Assembly (NCBI GenBank): GCA_046318675.1
Contig: JBKCUA010000002.1
Coordinates: forward strand, 14,191 to 78,190
Direction: 5' to 3'
DNA from: Holosporales bacterium
GTDB taxonomy: Bacteria > Pseudomonadota > Alphaproteobacteria > JAJTHO01
Length of the DNA: 64,000 nt
Part shown: piece by piece, positions 3,283 to 60,542 of the stretch
How the letters are laid out: the number at the start of each line of letters is the position of its first letter
Position numbering within the stretch: the first letter of the stretch is position 1
Notes under the pieces: generated by a model
What the model saw: the letters and a program-made list of their open reading frames with translations, nothing else
What the model was told of the DNA's origin: nothing
Database searches by the model: none
Position numbers and translations under genes: made by a program

Positions 3283-6200
3283 ATGGCTGCGCTCCCTGAG
3301 ATATCTATTCGTCGCCCGATTTTTGCTACGGTGTTAAATTTATTATTGGTCTTGGTTGGGCTGGTAGCAGGCACGCGCCTCGCAGTGAGGGAGTATCCTA
3401 ATATTGATTCGCCGGTGGTCACGGTGGACACTCGTTATGTTGGGGCTTCGGCGGAAGTAATGGAATCCCAGGTAACGAAGCCTCTTGAGGATGCTCTTTC
3501 TGGTATCGAAGGCATTGACTTTATTCGTGCTATTAATAGAGCTGAATCAAGCCAAATTACGGTACAATTTCGCCTCAGCCGCGATCCAGACGGCGCGGCC
3601 AACGATGTTCGTGATCGGGTTGCTCGTACCCGTGCTAGATTGCCTGATGATATTGATGATCCGGTGATTGCAAGGGTAGAGGCCGATGCCACCCCCATTA
3701 TGTGGGTCAATGTTAACAGTGATGTACATAGTGCCTTGGAAGTTTCTGAATATGCTGATTTAGTTGTGCAGGATCGCCTGCAGACCTTGGATGGAGTGGC
3801 TCAGGTACGGTTGTTTGCTGAGCGTCGTTATTCTATGCGAATTTGGCTCGATCGTGATCGGTTGGCGGCGTATCAGGTAACCCCAGGTGACGTGCAAAAT
3901 GCTCTTAATGAGCAAAATATTGAAATTCCAGCAGGACGAATTGAAGGTAAAAGCAGGGAGTTTACAGTTTTAGCTCAAACAGATTTGAACACCCCCGAAG
4001 ATTTTCAAAATATCATTTTGCGAAGCAGTGTTGATGGATCCATTGTGCGCCTAAAAGATGTCGCACAAGTTGTTTATGGTCCTGCTGATGAACGGCAGAT
4101 AGCCCGGTATAATAACCGTAATTCTATAGCACTGGGGATTGTTAAGCAATCAGTAGCCAACCCTCTGGATATTTCAGCACAGGTTCGTAAGGTATTGCCT
4201 GAAATTGAAAAATTACTTCCTCAAGGGATGCGGATCAATATCGCCTATGATTCGTCGGTGTTCATTCGCCAGTCAATCGCCAATGTATTTCATACGATTG
4301 TTGAGGCCACAGTGTTGGTAGTGTTGGTGACGTTTTTGTTTTTGCGTACGGTGCGGGCAACATTGGTGCCGCTGGTGGCTATCCCTGTTTCTTTGATTGG
4401 GGCGTTGATCCTGATGTATGTAGCGGGGTTTACAATTAATACCCTTACAATGTTATCCATGGTCATTGCCATTGGGTTGGTGGTGGATGATGCTATTGTT
4501 GTTTTAGAGAATAGTTACAGGCATCTAGAGCGTGGTCTTGATCCCTTACACGCGGCCATCAAAAGCATGAGGGAGATTTCTTTTGCGGTAATTGCCATGA
4601 CCTTGACGCTGGCGGCGGTGTTTGCGCCGATGGCGTTTTCCACGGGTAAGACCGGGCGGCTTTTTATTGAGTTTGCTTTAACATTGTCGGCAGCGGTGCT
4701 GATTTCTGGCTTTGTGGCTTTGACATTGACGCCCACTATGTGCGCTCGAATGCTCAGAGCCAAGGATTTACATAGCACTCATGGTTTTAGTAAACGGGTA
4801 GAGCTGTTTTTAAGGCATATAGAAGCCCACTATAAAAGCCGTCTTGGTTGGATTATGTCTAAAAAACCCTTGACGCTTATTGTTGCGGGTATATGTGCTG
4901 GCTTAGCAGTATTGCTATTTATTAGTTTGCCCCGGCAATTGACCCCGATTGAAGATCGCGGGGTGATTTTTTCGGTTACTATGGCACCGGAAGGCTCCAC
5001 TGTTTGGTATAGTGATACTTATTTACAGCAAGTAGAGCAAACACTTCAACATCAGCCTGAAGCCGCTTGGAATTTTACCGTAGTGGGTTTTCCAACAATT
5101 GTACAAGGCTATAGTGTTTTAGGTTTGAAAGATTGGGGCGAGAGATCCCGACATTCCACAGCTATTGTTGAAGCGATACGGCCTCGCTTGGCACAAGTAC
5201 CTGGGGTGCTGGCTTTTCCCATTAATCCTCCCTCACTTGGTCAAGGGGCGCGTTCTCTTCCTATTGAATTCGTAATACAAAGTAGCGGAAGTTATGAAGA
5301 TCTGGAAAAAGTTGCTAATACCTTGCTGGGCAAGATGCGGGAAAGTCCATTATTCCGCACGCCAGATAGTGACTTAAAACGTAATAAGCCCGAACTTAAA
5401 GTGAGCGTTGATCGGGAAAAAACAGCTGCTCTAGGGGTGACGGTGGCTGATATTGGCGCGACTCTTGGTACTGCGCTCAGTGGTACGCCCATCACTCGTT
5501 TTAAGCGCAACGGTGAGCAATACGATGTGATCGTCCAATTGGCGGATGATCGCCGCCGTACCCCGGATGATTTGACGGCTTTGTATGTTCGGGGTAGGGG
5601 TGATGCGATGATTCCTTTGCAAAACTTGGTACAAGTGCGTGAAGGTGTAACACCTAGGGAACTTAATCGTTTTAATAAGTTACGTGCCGTAACAATTACT
5701 GCTAGCCTAGCCCAGGGGGTAGGGATTGGTCAGGGATTGGACTTTCTGCGGCAGGCATTGGAAAAAATTGATTCTACGGTTATGTCCGATGTGGCGGGGC
5801 AAAGCCGGGAGTTTAAGGAGGCCAGTAGCAGCCTAGGCATAGTATTCACTTTAGCATTATTGTTTATTTATTTAGTGTTAGCAGCGCAGTTTGAAAGTTG
5901 GCGCGATCCGTTGATTATTCTGCTGGCTGTGCCGTTGGCATTGTTTGGGGCATTGCTGACAGTATGGATAACGGGTGGAAGTATTAATGTATACACGCAG
6001 ATAGGTCTAATTGCTTTAGTCGGCTTGATTGCCAAGAACGGCATTATGATTGTTGAATTTGCTAATCAGCTTCGCGATCGAGGACGCGATGCGGGGGCGG
6101 CAGTGGTTGAGGCGGCGGCCATTCGCTTGCGACCTATTTTGATGACCACGGCGGCCACGGTACTGGGGGCATTGCCGTTAGCACTGGCCAGCGGTGCCGG

Positions 6201-56279: not shown

Positions 56280-57717
56280 TGATGCAATGCTTGAGGCCGC
56301 TGGTATTCATGGAGCCGTGGAACAGTCATTCACTGGTCTCGTTGCTGATTCCCGCCAGGTGCAACCTGGCATGGTGTTTTTTGCCATTCCTGGAGCTAAA
56401 GGCGATGGCAGTACCTATATTGCCGATGCCATCAGTCAAGGCGCGGGAGCTATTGTGGTTCCAGAAGGTACCGTTGTTAAAAACGTTAATATCCCCGTGC
56501 TCACCAGCACTCAAATTCGTCGTAGCCTCGCCTTGCTGGCTCGACAGCTTTATCCTCGGCAACCGGCAACCCTAGTAGCGGTAACAGGCACGAATGGCAA
56601 GAGCAGCGTGGTGCATTTCTGCCAGCAACTGTGGCAGCATTGCGGTGCTGAATCAGCTAGTATCGGTACCGTTGGAATTATTACTAAAAATCGCTTTATT
56701 CCCGGAGAGTTGACCACTCCTGGGGCATTGGAATTAATGCAAACTCTGAATCGGTTAGCTGACGAGGGGGTTACTCATGCTGCTTTAGAAGCTTCCAGCC
56801 ACGGCTTGGATCAGGAACGGCTGACGGGTATTGTTTTGAAAGCAGCTGCTTTTTTAAATTTAACCCGGGATCATTTAGATTATCATGGTACGATGGATGC
56901 GTATGCGGCGGCGAAATTGCGGATTTTTGGGGAATTGTTGCCTGAGGGCGGTGCGGCGGTCTTGAATATTGATGCGGCATACGCTGATGCGGCCAAGACG
57001 ATTATTGCCAAACGTCGCCAGAAACTAATTACAGTATCATCTAGAAAATCAGCAGATATTCAAATAATTAATATTATTCCGCGTTTAGCAGGGACGAGCG
57101 TTGAAGTGCGATGCTGGGGTGAAAATGTAATATTCGAGACACCTATTGTTGGCGGTTTTCAAATGGAAAACATGGTAGCAGCGTTGGGGCTAGTTGTAGG
57201 GAGTGGGACGGTTTTGGGTGCTGTTGATGTGGCCAGATTGTTGCCTTTGTTAGGAGCCGTACGGGGACGGTTGGAGCGTGTTAGCCCTGATGACAGTGAT
57301 ATTGCAGTATATGTTGATTATGCTCATACCCCCGATGGCTTGGAAACGGCGTTGAAGGCACTTCGTCTTCATACACAGGGTAAGCTTTTTGTTGTTTTTG
57401 GCTGTGGTGGTAATCGCGATACTGGCAAACGGCCATTAATGGGAGCGATTGCCAGGCGTTGCGCCGATGTGGTGCTGGTCACAGATGATAACCCTCGGTT
57501 TGAAAATGCGGCGTTGATTCGTGCTGCCATTATTGCTGGGGCTCCGGGAGCGCAAAATATAGGTGATCGTGGGTTGGCGATTGCCGCAGCAGTTAATCAG
57601 GCGCGGCCAGGTGATGTGATTTTATTAGCGGGCAAGGGTCACGAAACGGGGCAGATCATCGGTGATATAGCGGTACCGTTTTCGGATCAGGAAGCAGTGA
57701 AGAGATTGTTTATATAG
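56266..57717 (+). CDS. murE: UDP-N-acetylmuramoyl-L-alanyl-D-glutamate--2,6-diaminopimelate ligase
   Basis: Mur ligase P-loop VTGTNGKSS, and DNPR motif in the C-terminal domain (TDDNPRFE). Confidence 0.9.
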   Translation: MPIVNDAMLEAAGIHGAVEQSFTGLVADSRQVQPGMVFFAIPGAKGDGSTYIADAISQGAGAIVVPEGTVVKNVNIPVLTSTQIRRSLALLARQLYPRQPATLVAVTGTNGKSSVVHFCQQLWQHCGAESASIGTVGIITKNRFIPGELTTPGALELMQTLNRLADEGVTHAALEASSHGLDQERLTGIVLKAAAFLNLTRDHLDYHGTMDAYAAAKLRIFGELLPEGGAAVLNIDAAYADAAKTIIAKRRQKLITVSSRKSADIQIINIIPRLAGTSVEVRCWGENVIFETPIVGGFQMENMVAALGLVVGSGTVLGAVDVARLLPLLGAVRGRLERVSPDDSDIAVYVDYAHTPDGLETALKALRLHTQGKLFVVFGCGGNRDTGKRPLMGAIARRCADVVLVTDDNPRFENAALIRAAIIAGAPGAQNIGDRGLAIAAAVNQARPGDVILLAGKGHETGQIIGDIAVPFSDQEAVKRLFI

Positions 57718-57720
57718 TTG

Positions 57721-57868
57721 AGGGCACCTCTATTAACCTCATTTCTAGGGCGATTGGCGTCGTCAGGTCTATGCTCGCAATCCGCACGTACGTTTGAGTA
57801 CGCTTACGTTTGCTCGCCTAGCCCTTTCTATCCACTCATCCCGATAAATGGGTTAATAGAGGTGCCCT
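57721..57868. repeat. about 150-bp palindromic element bounded by 18-bp perfect inverted repeats (MITE-like / structured intergenic element)
   Basis: AGGGCACCTCTATTAACC (57721-57738) and its exact reverse complement GGTTAATAGAGGTGCCCT (57851-57868). Nested imperfect complementarity (CTAGGGCG ... CGCCTAG; CGTACG-type palindromes) lies inside. Confidence 0.6.
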
Positions 57869-57948
57869 TGAGTCATAGCCGATTTCATAATTAATAACGC
57901 TTTGAATAGATAACACCTAACATCTTGAACGCAAAGCAGTCCAATTTT

Positions 57949-58803
57949 TTAGCGTTGCACCACAACACAATCAATCGCCTTTATCTGTAATTCTTGACAG
58001 ACTCGGACAGCATCGGCTCGATTTGCCCAAGAGCCAGCTTGTAAGCGATAAAAAGTTCCTTTGGCTGTGGTGACGGGTTCAATGAATTTCTTAACTTTGT
58101 TGAGAGTGGCAACGCGATTGCGTAGTGTGTCCCATGTTTTGTTGGCTTGCGCTTCGGAATTAGATGCTACTAATTGAACGCGATAGGCACCGTTGGTGAT
58201 GGGTCGGACAGCGGCAGGTGGTATAAGTTTTTTCGTTATGATAGCAGTGGAAGGATCTTTAATGACTTGTTCTGCTTTTTTTTCTATTTTTTTCTCTATT
58301 TTTGGTGCTACCTCAATAATATTGGTTTTCTTTTCTGGAGTTTCGGTTTCTTCTTTGGTTGCAGATAGCGGTTTTAATACAGTATAGGTATGCGAAGATA
58401 GATTATCTTGGGGGTTATTATTCTGGGCAGTATTGTTCAAGGGCTGTTCGGGTGTGGGTAAAACAGTATCTGTTTCTGGTTGCATGGCGATTTCTGGATT
58501 AACTGAACGATAGACGAGTTTGTCTTGATCGGGAATGGCCATGCCTTCAGGATTGGCAGGTCGTATACGGGTATAGCTTGTCTCTGGTGTTAGTACCGCT
58601 AAAGACGTTTCATCGGTTTTGTTTTGTGAGCGTGAAAAGCTATATCCAACAAAAACTGCAGCAACGGCTAACATTATTAAGCCTGCTAAAAGCTTGGGCA
58701 GGGAAACCACGCGTGTTTCCGCGGTCAAGCGTGGGGAGGAATTTTCCGCCAGTGGCGGGGTATATGAATCAGAAGGTTTTTGTTTATAAAGTAAGTTTAA
58801 CAT
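57949..58803 (-). CDS. SPOR-domain (peptidoglycan-binding) membrane protein
   Basis: N-terminal TM anchor, low-complexity linker, C-terminal SPOR domain (YRVQLVASNSEAQANKTWDTL...FYRLQAGSWANRADAVRVCQEL). Confidence 0.7.
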   Translation of the reverse strand: MLNLLYKQKPSDSYTPPLAENSSPRLTAETRVVSLPKLLAGLIMLAVAAVFVGYSFSRSQNKTDETSLAVLTPETSYTRIRPANPEGMAIPDQDKLVYRSVNPEIAMQPETDTVLPTPEQPLNNTAQNNNPQDNLSSHTYTVLKPLSATKEETETPEKKTNIIEVAPKIEKKIEKKAEQVIKDPSTAIITKKLIPPAAVRPITNGAYRVQLVASNSEAQANKTWDTLRNRVATLNKVKKFIEPVTTAKGTFYRLQAGSWANRADAVRVCQELQIKAIDCVVVQR

Positions 58804-58808
58804 TTTTT

Positions 58809-60542
58809 TTACATCTCTTCTGCAGGCGTGATATTAAGGAGATTAAAACCAGCGGCAAGAATTATTTTTACCGCACTGACTAATACAAGTCGCGGTGCGC
58901 TCATAACAAAGTCTTCCGGAAAAAGAAAGCGCAATTGAGTGTTTTCACGACCCTTATTCCATAGCGCGTGAAAAACTGTTGCTATTTCTATCATATATAG
59001 TGCGATGCGGTGTGGCTCTGCGTGGCGACCGGCCAGCTCCAGTTGTCTTCCCCACCCGGCCAGAAGCCGTGTTAGGGCTATTTCCAGAGGATCATCAATG
59101 TTTTTTAAGGATATTTCATTAAGATCATTGACTCTATTGCCAAATAAGCTATGCGCGTGGCGCAACACTGAAGCGCACCGGGCGTGGGCATATTGAACAT
59201 AAAAAACGGGATTGTCCTTGGTTTGTTGGCGCACTAAGTCCAAATCAAAATCAAATATTTGATCATTTTTTCGGGTGAGCAGCATAAATCGAACCACGTC
59301 TTGGCCAACCTCGTCCACTAAATCCCGCGCCGTTATAAATGTTCCGGCTCGCTTAGACATTTTATAGGGTTGTCCATCTTTATAAAGATTGACTAATTGA
59401 CATACCAGCACATCCAAGGGGACACTTCCGCCGGATAATGCTGATACTACAGCTTTTAATCGTTTAACATAACCAATGTGATCTGCCCCGAGAATGGTCA
59501 CTAACCGGGTAAACCCGCGGTGTAGTTTATCGGCATGGTACGCAACATCGCCAGCGAAATAGGTGTTACTTCCATCTGCTTTCTTAAGCGGACGATCGAG
59601 ATCATCGCCAAATTGGGCACTACGAAACAGCAGCTGCGGCCTATCTTCCCAGTCTTCGGAAAACTGGCCTTTTGGGGGAGGGATCGTTCCCTCATAAACT
59701 AATTCAAGATTTTTTAATAGTTCAATCGATCGTTCAATGTCCCCATTTTGTTGGAGAGCTTCCTCAGATGTGAATACATCAAATTCTACCCCTAGCACCG
59801 CCAGGTCGGCGCGTACTCGATCTAGCATGGCGTTGACAGCGGTTCGACGAAACACCGGAAGCCAAACGGCCTCATTGGTTTTGAGCCATTTATCTCCATC
59901 ACGGGTGGCGATATCTTCAGCAACGGGGAGTAGATATTCCCCCGGATACCATCCGGCGGGTAGTTCTCCCGGGTTTTCCCCCAGCACGATTTGATAGCGA
60001 TAGTACACGGAGCGAGCTAAGGTTTGCACTTGGCTTCCGGCATCATTTACGTAGTATTCACTCTTCACCAAGGCCCCTAGATGAGTGAATAATCGCCCTA
60101 GAATATCGCCAAACACTGCCCCTCGTGTATGACCAATGTGTAAGGGGCCGGTAGGGTTAGCAGAGCAATATTCAATATTGACGGACATCCCTTGAAAGAG
60201 ATCGCTCCGACCATAGGCTATACCGTGTTTTAGAATGGCGTTCAGTTCATTGTGCCAGAAGCTGGCTTCAAAACGCATATTAACAAACCCAGACATAGGA
60301 ACAGCACTAATAAGCTTTGGAACTGTTTTATTAAGAATTTTTGCTAATCTTTCAGATATATCCGTTGGATTGTTACCCAACGGTTTTGCTAAAATTAAGG
60401 CTGCGTTTGTGGCCACCTCCCCATGGGCAGAATCTCGGCATGGTTCTATAGTGATTTTATCTGGTGAGAATGCAGCCGATTCTGCTATTTCGTTTACTGC
60501 GTTTAAAATACAATCATGTAACTTCTTGTAACAATGGGTCAT
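58809..60542 (-). CDS. argS: arginine--tRNA ligase
   Basis: 577 aa, class I HIGH-type motif (PTGPLHIGHTRGA), and C-terminal DALR anticodon-binding domain. Confidence 0.9.
   Translation of the reverse strand: MTHCYKKLHDCILNAVNEIAESAAFSPDKITIEPCRDSAHGEVATNAALILAKPLGNNPTDISERLAKILNKTVPKLISAVPMSGFVNMRFEASFWHNELNAILKHGIAYGRSDLFQGMSVNIEYCSANPTGPLHIGHTRGAVFGDILGRLFTHLGALVKSEYYVNDAGSQVQTLARSVYYRYQIVLGENPGELPAGWYPGEYLLPVAEDIATRDGDKWLKTNEAVWLPVFRRTAVNAMLDRVRADLAVLGVEFDVFTSEEALQQNGDIERSIELLKNLELVYEGTIPPPKGQFSEDWEDRPQLLFRSAQFGDDLDRPLKKADGSNTYFAGDVAYHADKLHRGFTRLVTILGADHIGYVKRLKAVVSALSGGSVPLDVLVCQLVNLYKDGQPYKMSKRAGTFITARDLVDEVGQDVVRFMLLTRKNDQIFDFDLDLVRQQTKDNPVFYVQYAHARCASVLRHAHSLFGNRVNDLNEISLKNIDDPLEIALTRLLAGWGRQLELAGRHAEPHRIALYMIEIATVFHALWNKGRENTQLRFLFPEDFVMSAPRLVLVSAVKIILAAGFNLLNITPAEEM

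Follow-up and report, generated by a model that had tools for sequence, protein, structure and literature searches.

A palindromic element directly behind murE in a Holosporales genome is very probably an IS5-family MITE

The palindrome that stands at the end of the truncated dcw cluster in a genome of the Holosporales, which are obligate symbionts of protists, is very probably an IS5-family MITE that landed directly behind murE. We favour this assignment because of its terminal inverted repeats (TIRs), its 4-bp duplications, the copies of it that lie at unrelated loci and the identity of its ends with those of IS5-type insertion sequences (ISs). The stretch analysed, called the window here, comprises 64,000 nucleotides of contig JBKCUA010000002.1. 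A first-pass annotation of the same DNA had proposed a MITE or other small non-autonomous mobile element as one of several readings, and this is the reading that the copies at unrelated loci, the copy-specific 4-bp duplications and the IS5-family ends bear out. The family is undescribed so far and belongs to uncultured Holosporales, while the kind of element is already known and ordinary. An odd palindrome would thus be explained as ordinary mobile DNA, and the tempting inference that it caused the break in the dcw cluster is removed.

The repeat finder returned inverted arms at 57721-57738 and 57851-57868, each of 18 nt, 100% complementary and spaced by 112 nt. The arms are therefore as real as the first-pass annotation had stated when it described perfect 18-bp TIRs around an element of about 150 bp, but the limits need to be drawn slightly closer: a direct repeat of 4 bp, TTGA, flanks the element at 57718-57721 and 57868-57871 and accounts for the outermost A...T pair, so that the true TIR is 17 bp long and the element measures 146 bp (57722-57867; Table 1). 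The region reads ...TTTATATAG (murE stop), TTGA, GGGCACCTCTATTAACC, 112 nt, GGTTAATAGAGGTGCCC, TTGA, GTCATAGCC..., and the two TIRs match perfectly, at 17 of 17 positions (18 of 18 if one duplication base is counted). With up to three mismatches allowed, the 17-mer core occurs at only two places in the 64-kb window, namely the two arms, against an expectation of 0.11. Folding, which had been suggested as a check, gives a near full-length hairpin on both strands, at -67.6 kcal/mol (z = -7.3) and -74.4 kcal/mol (z = -8.9), and none of 200 shuffled sequences folded as well. From the arms, the 17-mer scan, the fold z-scores and the shuffles together, the palindrome is real and far beyond chance. 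Its interior is largely self-complementary, as had been described, and includes a CGTACG stem-loop; the pairing quoted for it, CTAGGGCG with CGCCTAG, is inexact by one extra G. At 146 bp, the element has no capacity to encode a transposase. The sole open reading frame reported inside it, of 58 aa and initiated at TTG (57718-57894), is taken to be spurious, and a promoter scan of the region found no sigma-70-like site.

Table 1. Features at the murE/SPOR junction, in window coordinates
Feature	Position	Strand	Basis
murE, last dcw gene of the cluster in this genome	56266..57717	+	Pfam Mur_ligase, Mur_ligase_M, Mur_ligase_C; homologues
Left target-site duplication copy, TTGA	57718..57721		First base directly 3' of murE stop TAG
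MITE (very probable), 146 bp, non-coding, imperfect palindrome with long-hairpin potential	57722..57867		Identity to copies, fold energies
Left TIR, GGGCACCTCTATTAACC, 17 bp	57722..57738	+	17-mer also terminates full-length IS5-family ISs and many short elements elsewhere
Central short stem-loop, CGTACG-TTTGAG-TACG, tip of the long hairpin	57787..57802		Folding; deleted in the 107-bp variant L118
Right TIR, + strand reading GGTTAATAGAGGTGCCC	57851..57867	-	Repeat finder, 17-mer scan
Right target-site duplication copy, TTGA	57868..57871		Sequence, flank comparison by script
77-nt spacer from the element to the SPOR-gene stop codon, outside the MITE	57872..57948		Alignment and blastn against L121
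SPOR-domain gene, convergent with murE, then argS and prmC	57949..58803	-	Pfam SPOR; ArgS, PrmC

A scan for the 17-mer, with one genome taken per species, returned more than 107 loci at the least. As judged from aligned copies, these data show that the window element belongs to a family with at least nine copies at unrelated loci in Holosporales sequences. Within one Holosporales MAG (JBKDWF01), the 146-bp element is found at L026, L080 (1377-1522), L090 and L113, and L080 holds a second copy, into which an IS630 element has nested itself with a TA duplication (4925-6198); a metagenome scan added further copies on contigs L116-L120, and the flanks of the copies are unrelated to one another. 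The window element is 87-95% identical to the full-length copies at L026, L080, L090, L113, L117a and L119 and 82% identical to the degenerate L117b, and the alignment of nine copies has a mean column identity of 91%. To see whether the element extends further, the flanks of the copies were compared, and no similarity was found beyond the 4-bp duplication. Shorter forms exist as well, in that a variant on L118 (1179-1285) is reduced to 107 bp by an internal deletion with its AAGA duplication intact, and the copy on L120 (1198-1266) is truncated on one side. A metagenome scan for a full-length parent, with a 22-mer made up of the TIR and subterminal sequence, yielded 5 contigs, all of them MITEs or fragments. 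The window itself holds one copy only. For the window's own species the evidence is indirect: five independent short-read assemblies (Logan contigs L002, L003 and L126-L128) end 26-28 nt or 67 nt inside the element and, since assemblers stop at multi-copy repeats, these ends indirectly point to more than one copy there. The family is a recurrent cause of contig breaks and fragments Holosporales MAGs at its insertion sites.

Several smaller observations were made on these sequences. The degenerate copy (L117 2233-2378, metagenome Ga0315899_10061929) has an A-to-G change at position 5 in both TIRs, symmetrically, and two more stem pairs have changed on both sides in copies other than this one. 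A solo 17-mer stands upstream of a gene in the Holosporales MAG (L037 7236-7252), and the sequence that adjoins the truncated L120 copy, from a reading of its translation, suggests an IS630-type transposase C-terminus.

The search for a target-site duplication, also suggested at the outset, was positive, with TTGA on either side of the window element. Most copies in the Holosporales family have their own 4-bp repeat (TTGA in the window, then TTCC, TTGT, CAAA, CACA, TGCG, AAGA and TAAT); an exact repeat was found for seven of the eight paired copies, and matching 4-bp flanks are absent from L026. Over all lineages, 47 of the 68 end pairs at the loci examined are flanked by an exact 4-bp repeat, as against 0 of 68 in the offset control, and repeats of 5-7 bp were found at 0 of 68. 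The duplicated bases show a preference for T at position 1 and A at position 4.

The link to the IS5 family comes from the ends. Full-length ISs with the exact 17-mer at one end were found in Nitrospira (L068, L085, L099 and L104; 1297-1298 bp) and in Lewinellaceae (L050; 1290 bp). In these elements the 17-mer is the end downstream of the transposase gene and the opposite end is GGGCACCTCTAAAAAC; four of the five, all except L050, are bordered by 4-bp duplications (TATA, TTAT, TATA and TCAA). The transposases that were scored, those of L104 (Nitrospira) and L050 (Lewinellaceae), reach 271-277 bits on the NCBIfam model transpos_IS5_4 (NF033581), for which the cutoff is 140. Arenicellales ISs of about 1370 bp likewise have the 17-mer at one end, with GGGCACGTCTATTTATT at the other. 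Compared with the Nitrospira transposase, that of Arenicellales is about 45% and that of Lewinellaceae 50% identical. On plasmids, the closest annotated relatives are an IS5-family element of Aliarcobacter, at 52% identity, which has the ends GGGTACCTCTAAAAAC and lies between two copies of ATAT, and IS1169/IS1168 of Bacteroides, at 49%. Duplications of 4 bp at YTAR-like sites define the IS5 subgroup (ISfinder; Mahillon & Chandler 1998). The window element shares its ends with elements that encode IS5-family DDE transposases, and its duplication is of 4 bp. The nearest known elements belong to the IS5 subgroup (IS5 of E. coli, IS1168/IS1169 of Bacteroides fragilis and the unnamed Nitrospira, Lewinellaceae, Arenicellales and Aliarcobacter elements). 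The ends of IS5 itself, GGAAGGTGCGAATAAG, differ from the 17-mer. Unlike the full-length IS5-type elements, the window element is without a transposase gene, measures 146 bp as against about 1.3 kb and has two ends of the TATTAACC type. Among the matches listed, full-length ISs with matching ends occur only in other phyla, and tblastn with an IS5 transposase as query found no match in the window or in any of the Holosporales loci examined.

We propose that an IS5-type DDE transposase, supplied in trans, would have bound both 17-bp ends, excised the element from its donor locus and inserted it at a staggered break of 4 bp immediately past the murE stop, the repair of the stagger presumably giving rise to the TTGA...TTGA arrangement. 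As to the origin of the element, it carries the TATTAACC type at each end, unlike the full-length ISs with their two different ends (TATTAACC and AAAAAC, or TTTATT), and the subterminal sequences of its two halves are alike in inverted orientation. The MITE thus resembles a single IS end that has been duplicated in inverted orientation, an origin that would account for its palindromic, hairpin-forming interior. The insertion would have arrived in the window lineage when the dcw cluster was already interrupted at murE, in a place between two convergent genes that may well be tolerant of it, and any effect of the hairpin on RNA 3' ends would be secondary.

Such an effect is at the centre of the alternative that survives best, namely that the element is a MITE by origin which the host has adopted, so that its hairpin now serves as a 3'-end structure shared by the convergent murE and SPOR-gene transcripts, by blocking transcription or by protecting against 3' exonucleases. 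This would be a secondary function, compatible with the explanation as an IS5-family MITE, and we consider it unlikely. Both strands give a very stable hairpin, which fills the gap between two convergent genes from right behind the murE stop; it is kept in nine copies, where 95.7% of cells are paired and both partners have changed in three pairs, and is found in all samples of the species examined; but a hairpin is predicted by palindromic origin alone, and the covariation is weak, coming as it does from nine related sequences in which one of the three 'compensatory' pairs is common to a subclade that includes two orthologous copies. Furthermore, an intrinsic terminator would have a G+C-rich stem-loop with a U-tract directly after it, and no such tract follows the long stem on either strand, the sequence there being TGAGTCAT on the + and CAACTATA on the - strand; the terminator scan gave one match only, to the central stem of 5 bp, whose T tail is weak. 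The remaining copies lie in varied contexts, and L121, a relative at 81% MurE identity, has a spacer of 2 nt and no hairpin at this junction. The first-pass annotation had held that an element unique in the genome and conserved in position among relatives would speak for a simple terminator; the element is neither restricted to a single locus in the lineage nor conserved in position.

The position of the element at the end of the cluster invites a second alternative, that it is the scar or the agent of the separation of murE from murF-mraY, for example through recombination between two repeat copies, and that it marks the breakpoint of the dcw cluster, as had been put forward from the sequence. 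The description of the site itself holds: Pfam places MurE on the + strand and the SPOR domain on the - strand, convergent with it, and the order is interrupted after murE, there being no homologue of murF or mraY anywhere in the 64-kb window. Pfam matches on the + strand are to MraZ, RsmH, FtsI and MurE, and the 107-aa open reading frame at the position of ftsL is without a Pfam match and is assigned by position alone. The murE stop codon, TAG, occupies 57715-57717, and the TTGA of the element starts right behind it, at the exact end of the truncated cluster; repeats of the family also occur elsewhere in related genomes, and recombination between them is possible in principle. However, L121 (81% MurE identity; 81% DNA identity over 5.1 kb) has mraZ-rsmH-ftsL-ftsI-murE followed by convergent SPOR-argS-prmC, which is the same junction with the same neighbours and without the element, and L122 (69% MurE identity) still has murE-murF-mraY. 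Because of this distribution, the dcw break is, on the comparison of these relatives, older than the insertion and would have arisen before the split of the window lineage and L121. The intact TTGA/TTGA, in turn, indicates a simple insertion, since recombination between copies would leave unlike flanks. The element did not cause the dcw break and does not mark a rearrangement, and we regard the alternative as highly improbable.

In L121 the murE and SPOR stop codons are 2 nt apart, and the 77 nt that adjoin the element in the window (57872-57948) are without counterpart there too, so that the two loci do not form a clean before-and-after pair. An exact empty site would read ...TATAGTTGA joined directly to GTCATAGCC, and a metagenome search with GTTTATATAGTTGAGTCATAGCC returned 0 matches to it. 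The same 231-nt murE/SPOR spacer, by gene coordinates, is present in a 98% relative (GCA_041442895.1), and the element is also present on JGI and Logan contigs assembled from several samples; the insertion looks fixed within the species.

Still less probable is that the element is not mobile DNA and represents instead a structured non-coding RNA gene or a locus-specific cis-regulatory palindrome. The fold z-scores are strong, as such a reading would require, but the copies lie scattered at unrelated loci, each bordered as a rule by a target duplication, the ends match IS ends exactly, the orthologous locus of L121 lacks the element, and a search of 56500-59000 on both strands with the Rfam 15 covariance models gave no match even at E <= 1. 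The suggestion of a long structured RNA or bidirectional terminator, which had been offered beside that of a MITE, thus finds no Rfam family, no U-tract and no counterpart in the close relative. Finally, derivation by deletion from the IS630-family element enclosed by identical ends in L080 (4925-6198) is rejected, for although that 1274-bp unit has the ends of the MITE and encodes an IS630-family transposase (NCBIfam 212.7 bits), the IS630 element has 27-bp inverted repeats of its own (TTAATCCGTCCATAGATATTCCGACAT) and a TA duplication at a GGTA|TATG site of the MITE, and is therefore nested in a MITE copy, while the duplications of the MITE family are of 4 bp, varied in sequence and mostly without TA, in contrast to what an IS630/Tc1-mariner MITE would have. 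The nested element, on contig JBKDWF010000051.1, measures about 1.13 kb and has a transposase of 354 aa, and a tblastn search of the window with an IS630 transposase gave no match.

Small palindromes of this sort have precedents. The Correia elements of Neisseria and the Rickettsia palindromic elements are palindromes of 100-150 bp with the potential for long hairpins, scattered in small or host-associated genomes and often at gene ends. The former have 26-bp TIRs and a TA duplication; the latter often lie in frame within genes and have no known IS partner. Neither kind is known to have the 17-mer or the 4-bp duplication, and we do not claim membership in either. Closer in kind are the IS5-family-derived MITEs BrickBuilt, MITE239 and MITE293 of Porphyromonas gingivalis and the ATR element of Neisseria, whose parent is ISNme1; these are small, non-coding and multi-copy, with TIRs identical or near-identical to those of IS5-family ISs, and their parentage has been assigned from the TIRs only (PMC4596501). 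The window element resembles them in being small, non-coding and multi-copy with IS5-family TIRs, but their TIR is unrelated (GAGACCTTTGCAAAA) and their hosts are others. BrickBuilt, moreover, has a minisatellite and irregular duplications, whereas the duplications of the window family are regular, of 4 bp, and no parent IS occurs in the Holosporales loci examined. A full-text search of the searchable literature for the TIR strings gave no relevant paper, only chance primer matches to an 11-mer, and one for MITEs together with Holosporales gave no paper linking the two, the matches being to the arthropod 'mite'.

Beyond the Holosporales, the exact 17-mer GGGCACCTCTATTAACC terminates at least 15 families of short elements with unrelated interiors (loci L009-L115), in Saprospiraceae, groundwater Nitrospirae, several Alphaproteobacteria, Opitutales, Nitrospinota and others; a scan of viral contigs for the 17-mer came back empty. 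The conservation of this IS end across phyla is unusually strict, the 17-mer being exact where the transposases are only 45-50% identical. It is possible, though we put it forward tentatively and think it doubtful as a whole, that GGGCACCTCTATTAACC is an unusually constrained, pan-phylum transposase-binding site from which at least 15 unrelated MITE families have arisen independently (in Bacteroidota, Nitrospirota, Alpha- and Gammaproteobacteria, Verrucomicrobiota and others), among which the Holosporales family would be an 'orphan' made of two inverted IS ends, with no resident transposase and with a hairpin kept by compensatory changes. If this were true, the hairpin itself, as DNA or as RNA, would be under selection in an obligate intracellular symbiont. 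The shared 17-bp IS5-type end is useful for the annotation of MAGs and could be of interest for studies of transposase-end recognition and of the birth of MITEs.

A last observation concerns the other end of the cluster, where an open reading frame of 1162 aa (49174-52662, - strand) is divergent from mraZ. Its orthologues in relatives, which measure 1273 aa in GCA_041442895.1 and exceed 1093 aa in L121, have no recorded Pfam hit, and the product may be an effector or another symbiont protein particular to this lineage.
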